Shown here in pieces: positions 3 to 29,531 of a stretch of 31,396 bases of DNA. Positions within the stretch are counted from its first letter, which is position 1. The number at the start of each line of letters is the position of its first letter. Source of the DNA: Myxococcales bacterium (GTDB lineage Bacteria > Myxococcota_A > UBA9042); the NCBI GenBank assembly GCA_037441385.1, contig JBBISH010000081.1:1-31396 (forward strand). Reading direction: 5' to 3'. Under the pieces are notes generated by a model, which saw nothing but the letters and a program-made list of their open reading frames with translations, searched no databases and was not told the DNA's origin. The position numbers and the translations under genes are program-made.

Positions 3-3000
3 GACTGCGCCGGCAAAGACGACGGCGACCTGTGCAACGGCACGCTGTTCTGCGACAAACCCACCGGCAGCTGCAAAATCAACCCGGCGACCGTGGTCGT
101 GTGCCCCAGCGTCGACGACACGGCCTGCAGCAAGAACGTCTGCCAGTCCAAGACCGGCCAGTGCGCCATGGTCGCCGCCAGCGACGGCGCGGCCTGCGAT
201 GACCAAAACCCGTGTACCGCCAACGACCACTGCGACAAGGGCCAGTGCGCCGCCACCGCCAACACCTGCGTCTGCGCCAGCGACGCCGACTGCGCCAGCA
301 AGGACGACGGCGACCTGTGCAACGGCACGCTGTTCTGCAAGGCTGGGACCTGCCAGCTGAATCCCGCCACCGTCGTCAACTGCAGCAGCAGCTTTGACAC
401 CGCCTGTCTGCAGAACCAATGCGACAAGAAGGCGGGCACGTGCGCGATGCACCCGGTCAATCAGGGCCTGCCCTGCAGCGACGGCAACCCGTGCACCGCC
501 GCCGAGACTTGCCACCTGGGCGAGTGCAAAAGCGAAAGCAACCTGTGCGAGTGCCAGGCCAACGCCGACTGCGCCGCCAAAGACGACGGCAACTTCTGCA
601 ACGGCACGCTGTTCTGCGACAAATCCAGCGCACCCTACGTCTGCGCGGTCAATCCGGCCACGGTGGTGGCGTGCAAGTCGGTCGACGACACCTTCTGCGT
701 GGCCAACCAATGCCAACCCAAGACCGGGCTTTGCGAAATGACCGCCGTGCACCAAGGCCTGGGCTGCACCGACAACAACCCGTGCACCACCGCCGACGCG
801 TGCAAAAACGGCGCGTGCCAGGGCCAGATGGCGGACTGCCAAGACGACCAGGACTGCACCGTGGACCAGTGCGACCCGGTGCTCGGCTGCCTCAACAAGG
901 CCGACGCGGGCAAGTGCAACGACGAGAACCCATGCACCGTGGACAGTTGCAGCCCGGTCGCCGGCTGCCTGCACAAGCTGACTCTGGGCCCCTGCGACGA
1001 CGGCAACGCCTGCACCAGCGGCGACACCTGCGACGGCATCACCTGCGCGGGCAAGCCCAGCCTCTGCGACGACAAGAACCCCTGTACCACCGATAGTTGT
1101 GTGCCTGCGACGGGCTGTGCCCACGCCGCCAACACCTTGCCGTGCGACACCGGGTTGCCCTGCACGCCCATCGGCACCTGCGACGCCGGCGCTTGCGTGG
1201 CCGGGCCAAGTCCACTCTTCACGGTCCTTTTGGACGGAAAGGCCGAGGATCAGGTGGCCGCCGTCGTGGCTGGCGAGCTGGGCAGCGTCACCACCGTCGG
1301 CTCCACCACCTCGCAGGGCAAGGGTCAGCACGACGTATGGCTGGCGCGCATCTCGGCCGGGGGCAGCGTGCTCGGCCAGAGCACGATCGGCACCAGCGCC
1401 GACGAGTGGGCTCTGGGCGCCGTCGTCAGCAGCAGCGGCGGCGGCCTGGCGGTGGGGCGCCTGCAACCGGGACCTGGCGGCGGCAGCGACGGCTATTTGG
1501 TGCGCTTTGGCGCGGACTTGCAGGCCCAATGGAAACAGGTGGCCGGCGGCAGCGGCGACGATGAATTGCGCGCGGCGGCCTGGCTGCCCGGTGGCGACGC
1601 CATCGCGGTCGGCAAGCGTGGGGGCCCGGGCGGCGGCACTTGGTGGGCGGTACGCGTCTCGGCCGTGGGCACCGCATTGTGGGAAAAGGACTTGGGAATC
1701 ACGGGGTCGGCGCGCGCGGTGGCGGTCGACGCGGGCGACAAGATCTACGTGGCGGGCACAGTCGCCCAAGCCGACGGCAGCTCGCGCCTGGGCGCCGCGC
1801 TGATCGGCCCAACGGGCGGCATCGTCTGGCAAAAAGTGCTCACGGTCGCCGCAGGCGGCGCCGAGGCGGTGGCGGTCCTGCCTGGCGGCGACGCGGTGGT
1901 GGGTGGCTGGCAGGGCCCTGACTTTGACGATGCGCGCCTGGTTCGCCTTGGCGGCGACACGGGCACGGTGGTCTTTGACCTGCTCTACGGCGGCGCGGGA
2001 TCCGGAGTGTTTTCGGCCCTGAACGTGCGCAACGACGGCACGGTCGCCTTTGCCGGCCGCCGCGGTACCGACGCTGGGCCACAACTTTGGGTCGGGCGCA
2101 TCGATCTGTTGGGCAAGTTGGTCTGGGACCGCATGACTGGCGCGGCACTGGCGGGCGAACTGCCCGCGCTGGCCGTATTGGCGGGCGACGAAAACGTCCT
2201 GGCCACAACCTGGCAAGCCAGCGACACCCAGGGGCTAGCCGGCCGCGTGGTCCGCACGGATCCGTGGGGCTATACCACCTGCACCGATCAGGGCGACTGC
2301 GCCGGCAAAAAGGCCAGCGACTGCAACGACAACAACCCCTGCACCCACGATTTGTGTCAGGCCGTCTTGGGCTGCAGCCACCAGGTCAATGGCCTGCCGT
2401 GCGACGACGGCAACGCCTGCACCACCCAGGACACCTGCGACCAGGGCCAGTGTGCCAAGTTCTCATCGGGCAGCTGCGACGACAAAAATGCTTGTACCAC
2501 GGACGTGTGCGACAGCGAGGGTGGCTGCAGCCACAGCCCCGCCAGCGGCGCCTGCGACGACGGCAACGTCTGCACCAAGGGCGACGTGTGCGCGTTGGGT
2601 CTGTGCAAGCCCGGCACGTTCGACACCTGCGACGACGGCAACAGTTGCAGCGACGACACCTGCGACGCCAAGAAGGGCTGCGCGCACACGCTGAATTCGT
2701 CGCCCTGCCAGTCGGGCAACTGCACCTACGGCGACGTGTGCAGCGGCGGCTTCTGCGCCTCGTCGGGCAAGCCGGCGTTCTTGGACAAGTGGTTCGGCGG
2801 CGCGTTCAACGACCGCGCGCAATCCTTGGAGCAGGTGGGCGAAGACGGCTTCGTCTTGGGCGGCGAGACCTATCCCACCGCTCACCCCGACGGCTTGATC
2901 ACCCGCGTTGACGCCCAAGGCAACAAGCTGTGGGACGCCACGGTCGTGTACGCCGCCAACGCGGGCGATGACTACGTCCGTTCCGTGGTGCCCACCCCCT

Positions 3001-4223
3001 TTGGCTTCATGGCCGGCGGCTACACCAACGGCTGCAGCTACCGCGCCTTGCTCGCCCGCCTCGATCCAGACGGCAAGGTCAAGTGGGTCAAGACCCGCTC
3101 GCCCTCGGCGCCCAGCGACGGCGACTGCTGGGACGGCCAAGAGCGCGGCGCGCTTTTCGATCTGGTCGACGGCGGCGACGGCTCATTCGTCGGCGTTGGC
3201 TGGCGCACCCACGTCAACTGGACCGAGACGCGCGGCTGGCTCCACCGCATCGACCAGGATGGCAACGCCATGAGCAACCAGTACTACTTGAACGGCGGGG
3301 GCAACACGTCGTCGCTGCAAGGGGTCGAGCGCGCCAGCGGCGGCGGCTACATCCTCGCAGGCTACACCAACGTGACCTCGGCCGGCGGCTGGGATGGCTT
3401 GTTGATTCGCACCGACGGCGCGGGCGCGACCCAGTGGTGGGCCCGCTATGGCGGCAAGGGCAACGACGTCTTGACCGACGCGGTCCCGGCGCCCGACGGC
3501 GGCTTCTATGCCTTTGGCTACACGGCCTCGCTGGGCGCGGGCCTGGAAGACGGCTGGGTCGTTCGCGTCAGCCAAACCGGCGCGCAGCTTTGGCAAAAGA
3601 CCTACGGCGGCTCGGCTTCGGACGCCTGGAGCTCTGGACGACTTTTGCCCGGCGGCAACTTGGTGGTCAGCGGCAATACCCTGTCCAGCGGCGCCGGCGG
3701 CCAAGACGCGTGGCTGGCGGGCCTGGACGGCCAAGGCAACCTGCAGTGGCAAAAGACCGTGGGCAGTGCCAACGACGACGTGTGGAGCGATGTCCGCGTG
3801 CTCAAGAGCGGCGGCTACGCGCTGGCTGGCTACGGCTATCAACCCAAGGCAACTCAACAGGATATGCGCTTGCTGCTGAGCGACGCTTTTGGCCACCTGA
3901 CCTGTGCCGACGCCGGCAGCTGCTTTGCCAATGTCAGCGCCGACTGCGACGACGCAAACCCGTGCACCGCCGACAGCTGCTCCCCGCAGAGCGGCTGCAC
4001 GCACGTCAACGCAACCTGGGCCTGCAGCGACGGCGACGCCTGCACCACCGGCGAACTCTGCGCCGCCGGCAAGTGCAGTGGCGGCGACAAGGTGGTCTGC
4101 GACGACGGCAACCCTTGCACTACGGACAGTTGCGACCCCGGCAGCGGCTGCACCACCAGCAAGGCGGCCGACGGCACGGCCTGCGGCACGGGCAAGCTCT
4201 GCGCGGCGGGGGTTTGCAAGTAG
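3..4223 (+). CDS. Large Cys-rich repeat surface/secreted protein with two beta-propeller-like domains (5'-partial)
   Basis: The frame is open from base 3 (DCAGKDDGDLCNGTLFCDK...), so the true start lies outside the window. Many CxDxNxCTxDxC and CNGTLFC repeats flank two Gly/Trp-rich propeller-type regions (about 1200-2270 and 2780-3895, W-x-K-T-Y-G-G-type blades). Confidence 0.85.
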   Translation, partial: DCAGKDDGDLCNGTLFCDKPTGSCKINPATVVVCPSVDDTACSKNVCQSKTGQCAMVAASDGAACDDQNPCTANDHCDKGQCAATANTCVCASDADCASKDDGDLCNGTLFCKAGTCQLNPATVVNCSSSFDTACLQNQCDKKAGTCAMHPVNQGLPCSDGNPCTAAETCHLGECKSESNLCECQANADCAAKDDGNFCNGTLFCDKSSAPYVCAVNPATVVACKSVDDTFCVANQCQPKTGLCEMTAVHQGLGCTDNNPCTTADACKNGACQGQMADCQDDQDCTVDQCDPVLGCLNKADAGKCNDENPCTVDSCSPVAGCLHKLTLGPCDDGNACTSGDTCDGITCAGKPSLCDDKNPCTTDSCVPATGCAHAANTLPCDTGLPCTPIGTCDAGACVAGPSPLFTVLLDGKAEDQVAAVVAGELGSVTTVGSTTSQGKGQHDVWLARISAGGSVLGQSTIGTSADEWALGAVVSSSGGGLAVGRLQPGPGGGSDGYLVRFGADLQAQWKQVAGGSGDDELRAAAWLPGGDAIAVGKRGGPGGGTWWAVRVSAVGTALWEKDLGITGSARAVAVDAGDKIYVAGTVAQADGSSRLGAALIGPTGGIVWQKVLTVAAGGAEAVAVLPGGDAVVGGWQGPDFDDARLVRLGGDTGTVVFDLLYGGAGSGVFSALNVRNDGTVAFAGRRGTDAGPQLWVGRIDLLGKLVWDRMTGAALAGELPALAVLAGDENVLATTWQASDTQGLAGRVVRTDPWGYTTCTDQGDCAGKKASDCNDNNPCTHDLCQAVLGCSHQVNGLPCDDGNACTTQDTCDQGQCAKFSSGSCDDKNACTTDVCDSEGGCSHSPASGACDDGNVCTKGDVCALGLCKPGTFDTCDDGNSCSDDTCDAKKGCAHTLNSSPCQSGNCTYGDVCSGGFCASSGKPAFLDKWFGGAFNDRAQSLEQVGEDGFVLGGETYPTAHPDGLITRVDAQGNKLWDATVVYAANAGDDYVRSVVPTPFGFMAGGYTNGCSYRALLARLDPDGKVKWVKTRSPSAPSDGDCWDGQERGALFDLVDGGDGSFVGVGWRTHVNWTETRGWLHRIDQDGNAMSNQYYLNGGGNTSSLQGVERASGGGYILAGYTNVTSAGGWDGLLIRTDGAGATQWWARYGGKGNDVLTDAVPAPDGGFYAFGYTASLGAGLEDGWVVRVSQTGAQLWQKTYGGSASDAWSSGRLLPGGNLVVSGNTLSSGAGGQDAWLAGLDGQGNLQWQKTVGSANDDVWSDVRVLKSGGYALAGYGYQPKATQQDMRLLLSDAFGHLTCADAGSCFANVSADCDDANPCTADSCSPQSGCTHVNATWACSDGDACTTGELCAAGKCSGGDKVVCDDGNPCTTDSCDPGSGCTTSKAADGTACGTGKLCAAGVCK

Positions 4224-7416: not shown

Positions 7417-9036
7417 ATGCTCAGCGATAATGCCAAGGCCCTGGCTGTGGCCACGGCAATTGTGACCGCTGGCGGCGCGGCCATCTGGACCTTGGCTCAG
7501 CGCCACCGCACGGCCAGCAGCGAGGACCGAGTCCTGACAAAGGACGAGTTCAAAGAGGTCAAAACGACTCAAGAACGCGAATGGCGGGTGGCGTCGGAGG
7601 CTGTGCTCGCCCCAGCCCCTGCGGCCAGCGGCGATGGCCTCCTGGGTCCCGACGGGGCGGACGGCTACGGCTACTCGCGGCGCTACGTGGATGCTCTTGG
7701 CCTGCGAACCATGCTGAAGGCCAAGAACTTCAAAGATATCGAGCGCCTGGTGGGTGCTTGGCAAAATCGTTTCGAGACGGATTGGCACGCGGAGCAGTGG
7801 GTCGTCGACGCTATCGCGGCGCTTTCGGCACCCGAACCGGAGTTGGAGCCCATTCTCAACGAGTGGGTGACCACCCGCCCCGGTTGGCTGCCGCTTACCG
7901 TGCGCGGCAAGTGGTGGCTCGACGTGGGCCAGCGCCGCCGCGGTGCCCGTTGGGCTCAAGACACTGCCAAGTCGGATTTCGAGTCGATGCACCGCGCCAT
8001 GGACCAGGCGCGCGCGGATCTGGGCGCTGTCGCCAAACACCGAACCCGCGTGCTGCCGGCCTTGATTGCTTCTGCCTGGGTCGAGATGTTTGCAGGGGGC
8101 CGCACCGCACGCGACCAAGCCATCGACGCGGCCATCGCCAACTGCCCCGCCTGCTTCTTCCCGCGCATGTTGCAGCAAAGCAGCCTGGAGCCGCGGTGGG
8201 GCGGGTTCAACTGGCGCATGCGCTTGGCCGCTGCCTCGGCTCCCACCGAAATGAACCCGCGCCTCAAGGTTCTGCGCGGCTTTGCCGACGCTGACGAGGC
8301 CGACATGGCCGTGCAAGACGAGCACCTGCCAGAGGCTTTGGCGGCGATCGATCGCGCCTTTCTTGCCGGTGAGTCGCCGATGTTCTTCATGGATCGGTCC
8401 GAGATCCGCTCGCGCGCCGGCCAACACGACGGCGCCATCGCCGACGCGCGCCGGGCCGTAGAGCTGCGGCCCGCCTTTGGCCCCGGCCACACCGCCTTGG
8501 CCAAGGCGCTGCTCCGGGCCGGTCGGCTGCAAGAGGCCGTGCCGGTTTGGCGCACGGCGATGCAGTTCGACGCGACCGCCACGGGCAACAAATTCGTCAA
8601 GGAAAACCTGGCGGCAGAGCTTGTCAAACAAGCTCAGGCCAAGCGCCAAGCCGGCGACCTCCGCACCGCTGTGGAATTGGTCGAGTTGGCCGCCGCCGTC
8701 TGGCCAGAGGACTCGGCCGTGCAAATCAATCGGCTGCACATCGTTCAGGCGCAGCCAACGCCCGCGCCGGCCGCCACGGCCGAAGACGAGTTCCGCGAAG
8801 TGCAGCGCCGCGACTACCAGCTGGCCCGCGAGCGTAAATTCGAAGAGATCTTGCCGCTTTGGGGCGCCTACCTGACCAAGCATCCATCGGACGGGCGTGC
8901 GTATCTCGAGCGCGGCGGCACCTACTACCATCTGCGACGCTACCCAGAGTCGCTCGCCGATGCCAGCAAGGCCTGCGCCTTGGGGGTCGACGAGGGCTGT
9001 CTGCGCGCCCGTCAGCTGGGGCCGCAACAGCGCTGA
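7417..9036 (+). CDS. DUF4034-like domain plus TPR repeat protein, N-terminal membrane anchor
   Basis: ATG at 7417 with AGAGG upstream. N-terminal TM segment, RGARWA and PRWGG motifs typical of DUF4034 proteins, C-terminal TPRs (AYLERGGTYYHLRRYPESLADASKAC). Confidence 0.75.
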   Translation: MLSDNAKALAVATAIVTAGGAAIWTLAQRHRTASSEDRVLTKDEFKEVKTTQEREWRVASEAVLAPAPAASGDGLLGPDGADGYGYSRRYVDALGLRTMLKAKNFKDIERLVGAWQNRFETDWHAEQWVVDAIAALSAPEPELEPILNEWVTTRPGWLPLTVRGKWWLDVGQRRRGARWAQDTAKSDFESMHRAMDQARADLGAVAKHRTRVLPALIASAWVEMFAGGRTARDQAIDAAIANCPACFFPRMLQQSSLEPRWGGFNWRMRLAAASAPTEMNPRLKVLRGFADADEADMAVQDEHLPEALAAIDRAFLAGESPMFFMDRSEIRSRAGQHDGAIADARRAVELRPAFGPGHTALAKALLRAGRLQEAVPVWRTAMQFDATATGNKFVKENLAAELVKQAQAKRQAGDLRTAVELVELAAAVWPEDSAVQINRLHIVQAQPTPAPAATAEDEFREVQRRDYQLARERKFEEILPLWGAYLTKHPSDGRAYLERGGTYYHLRRYPESLADASKACALGVDEGCLRARQLGPQQR

Positions 9037-9202
9037 GTGGGGCGTCCTGCTTGGGGCACGTAGTCCCCAGTGCGAGCACCGGGTTCCAAGCGCGTTGGGC
9101 GACAAGGGCCTGTGTCGGAGCAACTCGATCGTTCACGTGCGCGCAGGACGGCGCGATGCCCTGTAGGGGCGCGCACCCACCGGTTGCCTGGAGTGCGACT
9201 CA

Positions 9203-9334
9203 TACGATTTCCGTCCAAATCGGCTCGAAAACTTCGACAATTCTTCGGGCCCGAACCGGGGTCCCCGCCTGATTCTCGCCGGTTGCAGACCGGGTCAGAG
9301 GAACCGTACAGGCGTGAATCAGACGGGGTTCGTA
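9203..9334 (+). mobile_element. 132-bp MITE-like element, intact, TCA target duplication
   Basis: Flanked by TCA at 9200-9202 and 9335-9337. Imperfect TIRs tacgatttccgtccaaatc / tacgaaccccgtctgattc. 116/132 identical to the reverse complement of 20960-21091. Confidence 0.9.
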
Positions 9335-9389
9335 TCACCCAGCACCAGGAACAGGTCCCGACCAAATCGACTAGATTTTGCACGGGCCC

Positions 9390-10175
9390 CTACATCCCCG
9401 GCCGCAAGATCGAACCCACCGTGCTGAGCGGCTCAAAGCGGACATCCAGCGACACCCGCACTGCGGTCGCCGACGTGTTGGCCCAGGCGCAGTGGATCGC
9501 CTGCGCGCCGAACAGGACCACGTCGCCGGGCACCACGGGTCCAGTCGCCCAGGTTGCCTCGCGCGGCACGTCGATTCCTTGCATCGCATCGCGCTGCGGC
9601 CACTGACCCAAGGTGTGCGACCCAGGAACCACGCCCAAGGGGCCAACCTCGGCCGGGGTGTCGGTCAGCGGCAGCCACGCCGTCCACATCCTTGGACAAT
9701 CCGGTAGGTAGAAGGCATCGCGGTGCGGACGGGTGGTGTGTTCCGGGCTCCCAGGCAGCTTGATCCAGCAGTGGTTGGCCACCGCCACCCCGGCCGGTTC
9801 GCCATACAACGTCTTCAGTACGCCGAGCAACTGCGGACTGTGCACCAGCGCCAGAAAATCGGGATGAGCGCCGACTTCGCGCTGCAGGTCGATCCAGTCG
9901 GGGTCGTCCCAGCCGCGACCGGTCAAGCGGACTCCGGGCTTGGCTTGCCACGTACTTGGGTTGTCTGGCGCGGGCAGTACCCACCCCAGCGCCTCGCACC
10001 GGTGGCGCACCAGCGCCCGCACCGCCGCGATCGCCGCCGGGTCCAGCAGGCCTGGAAGGTATAGGTAGCCGTCTTCGTTGGCGATGGCCAGCAATTGTTC
10101 AGGACGGGGCAGGGCTTGCGTCGCATCGCGCAGCGGCACGGTGGGGTAATGGGCAGCGAGCAGCAAGTCGGTCAT
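9390..10175 (-). CDS. Phytanoyl-CoA dioxygenase (PhyH) family Fe(II)/2-oxoglutarate oxygenase
   Basis: TRPHRD (HxD), WTAWLPL, GPLGVVPGSH, PGDVVLF..IH, RVSLDVRF. Confidence 0.9.
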   Translation of the reverse strand: MTDLLLAAHYPTVPLRDATQALPRPEQLLAIANEDGYLYLPGLLDPAAIAAVRALVRHRCEALGWVLPAPDNPSTWQAKPGVRLTGRGWDDPDWIDLQREVGAHPDFLALVHSPQLLGVLKTLYGEPAGVAVANHCWIKLPGSPEHTTRPHRDAFYLPDCPRMWTAWLPLTDTPAEVGPLGVVPGSHTLGQWPQRDAMQGIDVPREATWATGPVVPGDVVLFGAQAIHCAWANTSATAVRVSLDVRFEPLSTVGSILRPGM

Positions 10176-26700: not shown

Positions 26701-26728
26701 TTGACCCAAATACCCTCGCGCGCATACT
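26701..26728 (+). promoter_or_regulatory. Possible sigma70 promoter of the ubiquitin-fusion gene (TTGACC-N16-CATACT)
   Basis: Near-consensus hexamers about 40 nt upstream of the start codon. Confidence 0.4.
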
Positions 26729-26770
26729 GACGGGGCACTGGTCATGTGCGCGACAAGGTGGAGCATGGCA

Positions 26771-27580
26771 ATGGCATCGAACTGGGCTGGTCGCCGCTTG
26801 GTGGCGGCGGTGGTGGCACTAGCGGGCACGTGCACGGCCGTGATGGCCGTGGCGATGCCGATCTACGTCAAGACGTTGACCGGCAAGACGATTCCCCTTG
26901 ATGTGGCCCCCAGCGAGTCGATCGAGGGCGTCAAGGCGATGATTCAAGCCAAAGAGGGCTACCCGCCGGCCGCGCAGACCTTGATGTTTGCCGGCAAGAC
27001 CTTGTTGGAGAACCACACCCTGTCTGACTACAACATCCAGAAAGAGGCGACGCTGAACCTGATCATCGATTTCTGCGTCGCCAACGCCGTGGTCTGCACG
27101 GCCGCCGACGACTGCCACACCGCCGGCACCTGCGCCCCGGCTACCGGACTCTGCAGCGCCGCTACCGCCACCGACGGCACCGCCTGCAGCGATGGCGACG
27201 CGTGCACCAGCGCCGATCAATGCCTGGCCGGCCTCTGCAAAGGGACGGCGGTGCCGGGGTGCGGCGACGTCGACGCGGGCGCAACTCAACCGGATTCTGG
27301 GACTATGGACGCGGTCACCAGCGCCGACGCCAGTACAGCTACTGCGGCGGATGCGTCCGCCGACCCGGACGGGGGCGCCTCTACGGCCCCGCTCGCCGAT
27401 GCCCCAAGTGGAGACGGCAAAGGAGCGCAGGATGCCGCCTCGTCCCCGGCCGAGAGCGGCGGCGACTCCGGGTGCCAGGCAGCCACCGGGGCGGGCAGCT
27501 GCGGCACGTGGCTGACCCTTGCCTTGCTGGGGGCGATGGTGGTGCGGCGGCGTGCCGACCGGCGAGTCGCGTGGCCGTAG
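26771..27580 (+). CDS. Secreted, surface-anchored ubiquitin-domain protein (signal peptide, ubiquitin, Cys-rich repeat, linker, MYXO-CTERM-like tail)
   Basis: GGAG 7 nt before ATG 26771 (alternative start 26765). Ubiquitin domain 26855-27067 [17 protein letters not shown]...FAGK...[26 protein letters not shown] repeat. GC...[15 protein letters not shown] tail. Confidence 0.92.
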
Positions 27581-27651
27581 CCTTGTCTGTGCCGTCTGCC
27601 GGCCGTGCCGTTTGGCTACCCGGACGCGGTGCGGACAGCCCTCAATCTGCT

Positions 27652-28143
27652 TCAAACGGACGCCGGCTCAAAGCGGCGCGGCGGCGGCGGCGACGCCTTC
27701 TTGAACAGGCCCGCCGCGATGCTATAGCCGAGCAGGGTGCCAAAGCCCATCTGCGTCATCAAGCCCAGCAGGTCGGTGCTCTGCCATTCTTGCATGACCT
27801 TGCCGTCTTCGATCCGCCGGGTGAACTGCCCGATAATCACCACATTCTTTCCCGTGGCCGGCGCGCCCATGAACTTGCCCGTGTTCTTGGCACGGGTCAC
27901 GAACCGGATGCTGACCAGGTCACCCTCGGCGATGACATGCGTGAATTCCATGGTCATTTCAGTCATGGCGTCTTTGAGCGCCTGCATGAAGCCGATGTAT
28001 TCGTCGCGGCTGTACACCGCGCTGTCGCCGGTGTAGGTGAAGCCGCTGTCCAAGAGCCCGTCGAGCTCCTTCCACTGGCCGTTCAGGATGGCCCGCGACA
28101 CGGCCAGCGCGGTGGACTTGTTGTTTTCGAGCGTTGTAGGCAT
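27652..28143 (-). CDS. SnoaL-like ester cyclase (NTF2 fold)
   Basis: IAEGDLV, G.FMGAPATGK.V, R.EDGK...W...D.LGLM.QMG. Strong AAGGAGG RBS. Confidence 0.88.
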   Translation of the reverse strand: MPTTLENNKSTALAVSRAILNGQWKELDGLLDSGFTYTGDSAVYSRDEYIGFMQALKDAMTEMTMEFTHVIAEGDLVSIRFVTRAKNTGKFMGAPATGKNVVIIGQFTRRIEDGKVMQEWQSTDLLGLMTQMGFGTLLGYSIAAGLFKKASPPPPRRFEPASV

Positions 28144-28216: not shown

Positions 28217-28675
28217 ATGAGCAGTCCGAACCTCGACGACCTTCCCGCCGCCTTGTCGCAGCACGCCGGCTACCTGCTGGTGCGGTTGGGCAAGCACGCA
28301 CAGCGCCTGTTTTCTTTGGCTATTTCGCCCGTAGGCTTGCGGCCCGGCCACGCCGACATCTTGTTGTCGCTGGCTGCGCGCGGCGCTCTGGCGCAAGTCG
28401 AGCTTGCGCAATTGCTGAACATCGAGCGGGCGCACTTGGTGGGCCTGCTGGACCAGCTAGAGGGAATGCAACTGCTGTTGCGGCAAACGGATCCCCACGA
28501 TCGTCGCCGGCACGCGGTGCGGTTGACCCTGCAGGGCGAGGCCGTGGCCGAGCAACTGGCGGCGATCGCGAACACCGTCGAGATGCAGGTGCTGGCTGGC
28601 TTGAGCGACGCCGAAGCCAGCGTGTTCCGCACGCTTCTGCAGCGGCTGGCCCGCGATGCGGACGAGGGCGATTGA
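28217..28675 (+). CDS. MarR family transcriptional regulator
   Basis: Q.ELA..L.IER..LV..LD.LE...LL.R..DP.DRR...V.LT..G winged-helix signature. Confidence 0.93.
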   Translation: MSSPNLDDLPAALSQHAGYLLVRLGKHAQRLFSLAISPVGLRPGHADILLSLAARGALAQVELAQLLNIERAHLVGLLDQLEGMQLLLRQTDPHDRRRHAVRLTLQGEAVAEQLAAIANTVEMQVLAGLSDAEASVFRTLLQRLARDADEGD

Positions 28676-28823
28676 CGGGCTCTTGCAGGCCAACTGGGAC
28701 TCATGGCCACCAGCCGGTCCGCGCGGGCTCGGCCAGCACCGGCGCGTCGCGGTCGCGCTGTGCACGAGCAGACAGCGGCGGCGGAACTTGCCACGCCCCA
28801 GGAAACCTGCGCAAAATTGCGCC

Positions 28824-29531
28824 ATGCGCAGCTTGCCTTTGTCCGTTGTCCTGCTCACCTTCGCCGTCACCGCCCAGGCTGGCTGGACCCAAGAGCCGGT
28901 CCGGGCCGTGCCGGGGCCGCAGGCCGCCACCAGCGAGGCCGGCGCTACGGCTGCCGCACCGCCCCCCGTCGACGTGGAATCGGTGGCGAAAGCGTTGCGG
29001 GATCAAGGGGCAACCGGCTTTGTTCCCGGCAATATCCGGGTGGTGGCAGAGGCTGGGCCCAAGGCGATGGCGGCTTTGAACAAGCTGCGCGCCCACACCA
29101 GCGGCCGCGCGTACTTGGTGCTGTGCGCCCGCGGCACCGAACTGGCGCCCCTGCAGGCGGCCTTCGCGCAGCGGCTCGGGCTTGTGGGGCGCGACGTCTT
29201 GGTGCTTTCGACCGCTGCGGTCTGGTCGGTCTATGCTCCGGCCGCGCCGGCAGATGTGCTCGCGCAGCTTGAAACCAAAGCGGCCGACCCGCGCGGTGGC
29301 CGGGCCTTCGATCGCCTGGAGGCGCTCTTGGCGGCCCTGCCTGCGGCCATGCAGCCTGGGGCGATTGCCGAGCTTCCGCGCCCTGCCAGCCCAGTTCAAA
29401 CCAGCGCGCCAGCGGCGACAACGGCGGACGACAAGACCTTACTGCTAGTTGGCGGGGCCGCGCTGGGCGCCTTGGTGGCCCTCGCGGCAGTGGCGATTGG
29501 GTTCCTGCTGGGCCGGCGCACGCCCAAGTAG
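28824..29531 (+). CDS. Hypothetical exported protein with C-terminal membrane anchor
   Basis: Signal peptide ending AQA, small alpha/beta domain, Pro/Ala/Thr linker, C-terminal TM followed by RRTPK. Confidence 0.7.
   Translation: MRSLPLSVVLLTFAVTAQAGWTQEPVRAVPGPQAATSEAGATAAAPPPVDVESVAKALRDQGATGFVPGNIRVVAEAGPKAMAALNKLRAHTSGRAYLVLCARGTELAPLQAAFAQRLGLVGRDVLVLSTAAVWSVYAPAAPADVLAQLETKAADPRGGRAFDRLEALLAALPAAMQPGAIAELPRPASPVQTSAPAATTADDKTLLLVGGAALGALVALAAVAIGFLLGRRTPK

Follow-up and report, generated by a model that had tools for sequence, protein, structure and literature searches.

A putatively surface-tethered ubiquitin from a probable myxobacterium belongs to a wide class of leader-bearing bacterial proteins

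In a stretch of 31,396 nucleotides from a probable myxobacterium (contig JBBISH010000081.1, the whole of which is called the window below), a gene at positions 26771 to 27580 encodes a protein in which a eukaryote-type ubiquitin domain stands directly behind a predicted signal peptide and is followed by a disulfide-rich module, a linker and a MYXO-CTERM-like tail. The ubiquitin has no C-terminal Gly-Gly, the same order of parts is conserved in a second organism, and the protein falls into a broad bacterial class marked by a leader and a ubiquitin head. We think it probable that the product is a surface protein of head, stalk and anchor in the style of TraA, with ubiquitin as the head by which it recognises or binds a partner on another cell. 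On this reading the gene encodes a secreted bacterial ubiquitin tethered in TraA fashion, and the class to which it belongs is apparently undescribed. All coordinates are those of the window, and the gene and its parts lie on the plus strand.

A eukaryote-type ubiquitin without Gly-Gly

Residues 29-99 (26855..27067) correspond to ubiquitin positions 1-71 by Pfam, by phmmer against PDB sequences, by AlphaFold2 modelling and by Foldseek. PF00240 matches residues 31-99 with an E-value of 3.3e-20 and 72 bits, against a cut-off of 25.4 bits, and the gapless phmmer alignment holds 47 identities in 71 positions (66%), with single-ubiquitin PDB chains matched at an E-value of about 1e-24. A preliminary description of this DNA, made from the letters, had arrived at the same count and had placed the domain closer to ubiquitin than to beta-grasp proteins of the ThiS and MoaD type; in the Pfam scan of the 269-residue protein Rad60-SLD was matched more weakly than PF00240, and no ThiS- or MoaD-type family was matched. 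In the AlphaFold2 model, built from 57 sequences, the predicted local distance difference test score (pLDDT) is 93-97 across residues 29-99, and in Foldseek the modelled head superposes on solved ubiquitins of the PDB with a root-mean-square deviation of 0.6 A over 72 columns and a template-modelling score of 0.94-0.96. The ubiquitin domain is confirmed far beyond chance.

Within the domain L8 and the lysines K6, K11, K27, K33, K48 and K63 are kept, and the hydrophobic patch contains M44, N68 and I70, with T42 in place of R42. The RLRGG tail had been described as lost, and it is: positions 72-76 read D-F-C-V-A (D-D-C-I-A in the homologue P0057, introduced below) and run straight into the Cys-rich module, with no Gly-Gly. 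None of the 23 window open reading frames (ORFs) scanned with Pfam encodes an E1, E2, E3, JAB or ThiF-type protein. Because Gly-Gly is absent and the domain would lie outside the cytoplasm, the window ubiquitin is neither activatable nor conjugatable, and for the same reasons it would act solely by binding.

Leader, stalk and tail

Residues 1-28 (26771..26854) form a putative type I signal peptide with two Arg (RR), a hydrophobic core and A-V-A before Met29; n-, h- and c-regions are visible, and AlphaFold2 models residues 5-26 as a helix. As first proposed, cleavage after A-V-A would leave ubiquitin Met1 as the N-terminus. A comparable junction is present in P0057, whose leader ends A-L-A before MQIF, and a hydrophobic leader stands directly ahead of ubiquitin Met1 in 83 of 87 related bacterial ORFs. 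A lipoprotein leader was considered and rejected: its one Cys follows A-G-T, a sequence that makes no lipobox, and has no counterpart in P0057.

Behind the ubiquitin, residues 102-164 (27074..27262) make up a disulfide-rich module which, from the alignment with P0057 and from BLASTP, comprises one 8-Cys unit of an extracellular repeat of about 55 residues and one extra Cys pair that brackets it. All 10 Cys of the module are invariant between the two proteins. The module is 41-48% identical (BLASTP, E 1e-9) to repeats of the first ORF of the window, which scores 127.8 bits on Dicty_CTDC (PF00526). The product of this ORF (3..4223, plus strand, open at its 5' end) is a giant protein of secreted type, 1406 residues or more in length, in which many Cys-rich repeats flank Gly/Trp-rich, beta-propeller-like segments. 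On the window protein itself neither Dicty_CTDC (Pfam) nor TIGR04201 (NCBIfam) gave a match at E <= 1, and DUF7107 (PF23416) remained sub-threshold with 15.2 bits against a cut-off of 24.6.

When residues 98-269 were used as the query, four proteins were returned, namely the query, P0057, P0241 (378 residues, with tandem copies of the 8-Cys unit of about 55 residues) and the fragment P0242; two of the four, the query included, contain ubiquitin. An exhaustive HMMER search with residues 96-269 matched 3648 representative proteins at E <= 1e-3, some of them up to 7521 residues long and with up to 72 repeat copies. Giant multi-repeat proteins dominate the 150 matches listed, and no further ubiquitin fusion is among these 150. 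DUF7107 is passed by three of seven scanned repeat proteins (P0353, P0354 and P0391, with 30-35 bits) and the other four have nothing above the cut-off, while MYXO-CTERM ends one of the six scanned against NCBIfam (P0353, 24.9 bits). By these comparisons, the C-terminal two-thirds of the window protein make up a commonplace surface scaffold of myxobacterial type that has one stalk unit. The stalk is followed by a linker rich in Ala, Asp, Ser, Thr, Gly and Pro (residues 165-230, 27263..27460), which is predicted to be disordered (pLDDT mostly below 50) and is weakly conserved in P0057.

The protein ends in a MYXO-CTERM-like tripartite tail at residues 231-269 (27461..27577), recognised from the sequence, TIGR03901 and the AlphaFold2 model. 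It contains Cys235 (27473-27475) preceded by G, Cys244 (27500-27502) followed by G-T, a hydrophobic helix of 12 residues from W247 to V258 (27509-27544) that has no charged residue and no Pro, and RRR at residues 259-261 (27545-27553), eight residues from the C-terminal end; residues 245-263 are modelled as a helix. The MYXO-CTERM design, as Haft sets it out, consists of an invariant Cys, often with a second nearby, a transmembrane (TM) helix without charged residues or Pro, and an Arg cluster, and by his curation the true matches of the model are confined to Myxococcota (10.1101/2023.06.07.544157). The preliminary description had listed a Cys-rich repeat, a linker and a tail of GC, TM and RRR with MYXO-CTERM in mind. 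That layout is present, and the tail meets the Cys / TM / Arg design at the extreme C-terminus, yet it misses the TIGR03901 cut-off, so the family assignment is sub-threshold for this protein. A GlyGly-CTERM tail was rejected, with 12.3 bits against a cut-off of 15.5 and no Gly-Gly motif.

Two genes downstream of the ubiquitin gene, a 291-residue ORF without a family match (28656-29531, plus strand) begins with a hydrophobic leader and has a TM segment at its C-terminus, after which comes G-R-R-T-P-K, with no Cys motif; its product may be another anchored envelope protein.

A homologue with the same five parts

P0057, a protein of 268 residues encoded on another contig, repeats all five parts of the window protein in unchanged order, at 56% identity overall and 74% over ubiquitin. 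One tail Cys is conserved together with those of the stalk, and the tail of P0057 passes TIGR03901 with 25.6 bits against the cut-off of 20. Among the 120 whole-protein matches listed it is the only one with this architecture, and eukaryotic polyubiquitins swamp the rest. A search of the ESM Atlas gave no usable match.

The homologue bears directly on whether the gene could be an artefact, either an assembly chimera of a eukaryotic ubiquitin fragment and a bacterial gene or an ORF that is not expressed. What would suggest a chimera is base composition, since the total GC content of the ubiquitin segment is 0.57 and that of the rest of the gene 0.71-0.74. However, the GC content at third codon positions (GC3) is 0.86 in the ubiquitin segment, 0.83 in the whole gene and 0.78-0.89 in 14 neighbouring genes, and because the segment matches its neighbours in GC3 we attribute its lower total GC to amino-acid content and not to foreign origin. 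Moreover, P0057 has the same junctions, the reading frame is continuous with a Shine-Dalgarno sequence and a promoter-like site in front of it, and 87 analogous fusions are found in other genomes, complete replicons included. Since an independent homologue shares the layout and GC3 is uniform and host-like, the gene as read here is not a chimera, and we assign an artefact of either kind an extremely small probability.

Ubiquitin-headed proteins in other genomes

The architecture had been put forward as one without a known characterised counterpart. It proved not to be a one-off, as a signal peptide, a single N-terminal ubiquitin and a surface anchor form a widespread bacterial pattern. The alignment of P0057 with P0001, the public protein identical to the 269-residue window product, was scanned against 185,579 species-representative bacterial and archaeal genomes and matched 480 stretches, of which 429 encode a ubiquitin relative; the 80 best (most similar) of these 429, holding 87 ubiquitin ORFs, were analysed. 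The search pattern AM[PQ]I[YF]VKT demands Ala at position -1, and genes with other junctions are missed by it. The second of the two patterns used, HTLSDYNI, covers just those few that have His54. PF00240 is passed by 87 of 87 ORFs, in each as a single N-terminal copy. At least 14 residues lie upstream of Met1 in 84 ORFs, with a hydrophobic core in 83; the exceptions are three tandem genes of locus L019, which have no leader by the start rule, and L038, which is truncated at a contig end. The residue at -3 to Met1 is Ala in 64, Val in 15, Thr in 2, Ser in 2 and Leu in 1, and Gly-Gly at positions 75-76 is kept in only 9 of the 87.

Downstream of the ubiquitin, Pfam domains counted at E <= 1e-5 include an autotransporter beta-domain in 16 of the 87 ORFs, IPTL-CTERM in three, OmpA in two and SLH in two; other partners are choline-binding repeats, Listeria-Bacteroides repeats, GLUG, YDG/MBG, Ig-like, cadherin-like, NHL and SdrD-B domains. 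When 21 of the 87 ORFs were scanned with NCBIfam, IPTL-CTERM passed in L079, L054 and L035, and 'Choice-of-anchor U' in L048, L054, L015 (twice) and L067. In a Myxococcales metagenome-assembled genome (MAG), L040, the ubiquitin is followed by more than 1400 residues of MopE-type Cys-rich repeats, and in a Polyangiaceae MAG, L023, by a Gly/Ala/Ser linker and a Cys...TM-RRRR end. About 10 of the 87 are minimal: a short linker joins the leader-bearing ubiquitin to a TM/Arg tail, and ubiquitin is their sole globular domain (L026 twice, L032, L035, L038, L042, L045, L075, L078 and L079).

The carriers include isolates and complete genomes, among them Paracidovorax valerianellae, Pseudohaliea rubra, Dyella humi, Pseudomonas danubii, Arcobacter sp. 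15-2 and Ruminococcus albus. On complete replicons, the fusions lie on the chromosomes of Arcobacter sp. 15-2 and Pseudomonas danubii and on a megaplasmid of R. albus 7. A tblastn search with leader and ubiquitin against plasmids and phages gave three plasmid records and no phage record, and thus no sign of a plasmid or phage vehicle.

The range of passengers brings up the reading in which ubiquitin is a passive N-terminal cap, that is, a fast-folding, protease-resistant and solubilising plug or spacer without a specific ligand. Ubiquitin fusions are established laboratory aids to expression and folding, and in this class ubiquitin always comes first after the leader, on passengers as diverse as the autotransporter, OmpA, SLH, choline-binding, Ig-like, NHL and GLUG proteins. 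Against a cap stand the minimal ORFs, in which ubiquitin and an anchor are all there is, and the window protein, in which the head would cap a stalk of a mere 63 residues. Fold constraint alone, moreover, would not hold surface residues as constant as they are (see below). A cap is therefore very unlikely in our estimate.

Several loci deserve mention in their own right. A conserved protein of about 330 residues without a Pfam match adjoins the ubiquitin gene at six loci (L014, L025, L049, L052, L056, where it lies at 8774-9763 on the minus strand, and L058); five of these encode ubiquitin-autotransporters and L052 an IPTL-CTERM protein, and they come from Methylophilaceae, Burkholderiales-type, and cyanobacterium- and Bacteroidota-labelled MAGs. 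This protein could be a functional partner. The two largest neighbour clusters over the 80 loci are antisense shadow ORFs on the ubiquitin gene itself, and none of the four recurrent lineage-specific neighbours examined with Pfam was matched. In a Verrucomicrobia MAG (L071:2429-3427) leader and ubiquitin are joined to a cyclophilin-like domain (PF18050, E 4.6e-26), which is of note because the target of BfUbb, the secreted ubiquitin of Bacteroides fragilis discussed below, is a peptidyl-prolyl cis-trans isomerase (PPIase). The three tandem ubiquitin-headed genes of L019 (1922-4075, Acidimicrobiales MAG) each continue for about 150 residues and end in F-T-G; their starts or their export route may differ. 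A leader and ubiquitin head occur on a 1491-residue SdrD-B/DUF11 protein in a Methanothrix (archaeal) MAG (L053:806-5278) and, in a single-cell assembly of Prochlorococcus, on an autotransporter encoded by one contig (L028:9965-11254), and in both cases mis-binning or contamination is possible. In Synergistaceae (L002:10022-12256) the ubiquitin head is followed by Listeria-Bacteroides repeats, leucine-rich repeats and a tail of G-C-G-G-C / TM / K-R, which by eye we take to resemble the Synerg-CTERM tag; no NCBIfam model for that tag matched. Finally, the protein on plasmid pRUMAL01 of R. albus 7 (L081, 387760-388500) is a 'ubiquitin family protein' in RefSeq with automatic Gene Ontology (GO) terms for protein ubiquitination and modification-dependent catabolism, which fit an exported protein poorly and are unlikely to apply.

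Full-text literature searches, which reached few subscription journals and no supplements, found no description of ubiquitin-headed surface proteins; the top 100 bacterial BfUbb homologues tabulated with PMC11467351 may already include some of them. The word 'ubiquitin' does not occur in Haft's MYXO-CTERM preprint (10.1101/2023.06.07.544157).

Conservation and origin of the ubiquitin head

Across hosts of 29 to 72% GC, GC3 of the ubiquitin segment follows the GC content of the locus (r = 0.89, n = 88). Over 3734 between-locus pairs of ubiquitin segments the median proportion of synonymous differences (pS) is 0.874, a value inflated by shifts in composition, and that of nonsynonymous differences (pN) is 0.117; the median ratio of nonsynonymous to synonymous rates (dN/dS) is 0.065 in the 649 pairs with finite dS. 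These ubiquitins are resident genes under strong purifying selection. K27 and K29 are conserved in 100% of the class, K6 in 99%, K63 in 94% and K48 in 90%.

With a near-canonical repeat of a bird polyubiquitin as the reference, the 86 other bacterial domains have a median identity of 88.9% (range 71-97%), a median that is inflated by the way in which loci were selected (an exact N-terminal motif, and the top 80 by similarity). The window copy (66.7%) and P0057 (69.4%) are the two lowest examined. E18, D21 and K29 are changed in both and are 98-100% conserved in the others; E51 (94% conserved), R42 and Q40 (77-78% conserved) are also changed in both, and H68N, at a position that is 92% conserved, occurs in the window copy alone. 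In a tree of ubiquitin domains the two pair on a long branch of their own, with a value of 97 in the Shimodaira-Hasegawa-like approximate likelihood ratio test (SH-aLRT). Otherwise this tree of 72 columns is star-like, with eukaryotes interspersed; 71 of 95 inner branches are unsupported and the window copy and P0057 form the only supported pair. The donor, the date and the number of transfers are not inferable from it. Horizontal acquisition, as claimed for this gene at first reading, is likely to be true in a deep sense, but a direct or recent transfer from a eukaryote receives no support from the star-like tree or from a GC3 like that of the neighbours.

These data weigh on whether the surface ubiquitin is a mimic or decoy directed at eukaryotes, which would engage ubiquitin-binding proteins of amoebae, ciliates, fungi or hosts and might, for example, alter uptake or digestion. 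The likeness of the class to eukaryotic ubiquitin is remarkable, and saturated synonymous sites with codons that follow the host are what selection by eukaryotic partners would produce. Record titles place the carriers in the rumen and gut, in fresh water, in the sea and in soil, all of them habitats in which protists commonly graze, and recombinant BfUbb is reported to bind human E1 in vitro (PMC3352274). On the other side, the figure for the class is swollen by locus selection, the window copy and P0057 are the most diverged and differ at surface positions that the others keep, and the ubiquitin machinery is cytosolic, so that a protein on the bacterial surface or in the phagosome lumen would be topologically outside its reach. 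The greater divergence of the window copy somewhat disfavours faithful eukaryotic mimicry in its case, and we regard mimicry as quite improbable here. For the class as a whole this reading may still hold. Given the drift of the window copy at surface positions kept by the rest of the class, we think a bacterial envelope protein, by analogy with the periplasmic PPIase bound by BfUbb, a more likely partner of this head than a eukaryotic ubiquitin receptor.

Proposed mode of action

The preliminary description had offered a contact-dependent weapon, a mimic or decoy, or an adhesin as possible functions. In the head, stalk and anchor model that we favour, the protein would be exported by Sec and cut by signal peptidase I after A-V-A, which would make ubiquitin Met1 a free N-terminus. 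The 10-Cys module would fold oxidatively into a rigid spacer. A myxosortase, a CPBP protease of the MrtX type, would recognise the Cys / TM / Arg tag and remove TM and Arg, the protein would stay attached through its Cys, presumably by a lipid, and it would then be transferred to the outer face of the outer membrane. Ubiquitin, fused to the stalk from position 72 onward, would be the most distal domain, about 165 residues from the anchor. The wider class speaks for ubiquitin as the displayed cargo, since it is single and N-terminal in all 87 ORFs, mostly behind a leader, and stands alone as a globular domain in the minimal members; the purifying selection on these segments also favours the model.

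A number of points weigh against this model. The signal peptide was recognised by inspection and from its likeness to P0057 and the related ORFs, and the Ala at -1 in 84 of 84 leaders is largely built in by the search pattern and so gives no separate support. For the stalk module the model has a low pLDDT (44-55). On residues 230-261 TIGR03901 gives 14.0 bits (E 0.048) where the cut-off is 20, and the hydrophobic segment of the tail is short. The 31-kb window contains neither a myxosortase gene nor a type II secretion system gene, and a scan of 20 further ORFs in it gave no MYXO-CTERM match at E <= 0.01. Clustering over the 80 loci found no real conserved neighbour gene across phyla, and the acyl-CoA ligase, SnoaL-like and MarR genes beside the window gene give no hint of function or partner. 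The host, too, is called a myxobacterium, probably rightly, from the named matches of one flanking gene and from the tag of P0057.

If the model is extended to the class, display of a near-eukaryotic ubiquitin at the tip of surface proteins would be a widespread bacterial and occasionally archaeal strategy, kept for long under purifying selection because the interaction surface of ubiquitin is the active part. This wider proposal is doubtful, and we offer it tentatively. It would fit a ubiquitin that engages the recognition machinery of eukaryotic grazers or hosts; it would equally fit a general handle for extracytoplasmic chaperones of the PPIase type, of which BfUbb would be a weaponised form and the myxobacterial protein an offshoot for kin or prey recognition. 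Were it true, the window gene would be an entry point to an unrecognised extracellular biology of ubiquitin in prokaryotes. Hundreds of bacterial genome stretches, spread over many phyla, encode a ubiquitin directly after an export signal, and these heads are joined to the majority of common anchors: autotransporters, IPTL-CTERM, MYXO-CTERM-like and Synerg-CTERM-like tails, OmpA, SLH, choline-binding repeats and sortase-type tails. If the heads bind defined partners, they would be a new class of surface ligand derived from the most conserved eukaryotic protein, with a bearing on predator-prey, host-microbe and kin-recognition biology, and the myxobacterial form is attractive for experiments because TraA and myxosortase tools exist. 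Even if ubiquitin were only a folding cap, annotation such as the 'protein ubiquitination' GO terms in RefSeq would need correction.

Gene signals, neighbourhood and host

The coding sequence (26771..27580) comprises 269 codons and a stop in the ORF listing. The ORF as a whole spans 26744..27580 on the plus strand, with in-frame ATGs at 26744, 26765 and 26771; we prefer the last because a Shine-Dalgarno-like AAGGTGGAG, read from the sequence, lies at 26755..26763 and ends 7 nucleotides before it. A sigma-70-like promoter match, TTGACC-16 nt-CATACT (26701..26728, plus strand), is found about 40 nucleotides ahead of this ATG; it is a match to consensus only, one such match where shuffled sequence would give 0.1. 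Nothing credible came from Rfam or from terminator scans of the surrounding sequence. An antisense ORF (26819-27655, minus strand) overlaps the gene as a long shadow, and such ORFs, here and at many other loci, are artefacts of the conserved sense sequence and not genes.

Beside the gene lie a divergently transcribed acyl-CoA ligase gene and genes for a SnoaL-like protein and a regulator of the MarR type. The best named matches of the ligase are to a 'Deltaproteobacteria' MAG (76%), Aggregicoccus (75%) and a Myxococcaceae MAG (74%), with Acidobacteria at 71%, and the window has a GC content of 67%. With the MYXO-CTERM tag of P0057 these make a myxobacterial host, as first suggested, a reasonable reading short of proof.

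Comparison with known systems

TraA of Myxococcus xanthus is described as having a type I signal sequence, a PA14 head, Cys-rich repeats that may act as a rigid stalk, and a MYXO-CTERM end (PMC3325183), and the window protein follows the same order of signal sequence, globular head, Cys-rich stalk and MYXO-CTERM(-like) tail. MrtX is reported to cleave the TraA tag in a Cys-dependent manner and to be needed for surface anchoring (PMC11980579). The two proteins differ in the head, which is PA14 in TraA and ubiquitin here; in the stalk, which here is a single unit of another Cys-rich repeat whose nearest Pfam families are DUF7107 and Dicty_CTDC; and in the tag, which is sub-threshold on TIGR03901 in the window protein. 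The Pfam scan of the window ORFs, moreover, found no traB-like neighbour beside the gene.

BfUbb is the closest known counterpart of the head. It begins with a signal sequence of 28 residues, shares 63% of its residues with human ubiquitin, lacks GG and has a C-terminal Cys (PMC3352274). A paper of 2017 spoke of 'one of a few bacteria' (PMC5705921), a picture that the genome scan reported here contradicts. BfUbb and BoUbb of B. ovatus, signal-peptide-bearing and GG-less, bind an essential periplasmic PPIase (PMC5705921, PMC11467351), which they reach after SusCD import (PMC11467351). The window protein shares with BfUbb a eukaryote-type ubiquitin of similar identity (66%), a 28-residue leader before Met1, the lack of Gly-Gly and a Cys near the ubiquitin C-terminus (position 74), and where the action is known it is by binding and not by conjugation. 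BfUbb, however, has no tether: about 76 residues long, it passes into the medium, is imported by SusCD and is encoded in a low-GC island, whereas the mature window protein would have 241 residues, 170 of them further residues of stalk, linker and Cys/TM/Arg tail, would probably be tethered, and is encoded with host-like codon usage in a high-GC probable myxobacterium.

The likeness raises the question of whether the window protein is itself an antibacterial weapon, whose head would inactivate an essential envelope protein, such as a periplasmic PPIase, of competitors or prey. Delivery would be by contact, by outer-membrane vesicles, by outer-membrane exchange or by proteolytic release from the tether. 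BfUbb and BoUbb are, in the reports cited here, the only bacterial ubiquitins with a tested function (PMC11467351, PMC5705921), the window protein resembles BfUbb in the four features just given, and myxobacteria are predatory and exchange outer-membrane material by way of the MYXO-CTERM protein TraA (PMC3325183). Yet the tether and the added length set it apart, its Cys74 is part of the 10-Cys stalk and probably disulfide-bonded there, and SusCD import is a mechanism of Bacteroidota. Antibacterial activity of the BfUbb type depends on a C-terminal disulfide. No immunity-like or PPIase gene adjoins the window gene, the 80 loci of the wider class have no conserved neighbour, and our literature searches found no killing data for ubiquitins from outside Bacteroides. 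A weapon of this kind is unlikely, if far from negligible.

The members of the wider class share with the window protein one ubiquitin right after the leader, usually without Gly-Gly, and then an anchor or surface module. Nearest to it in layout are L023, L040 and the IPTL-CTERM forms L016, L052, L054 and L079, and its exact combination of parts recurs in P0057 only.

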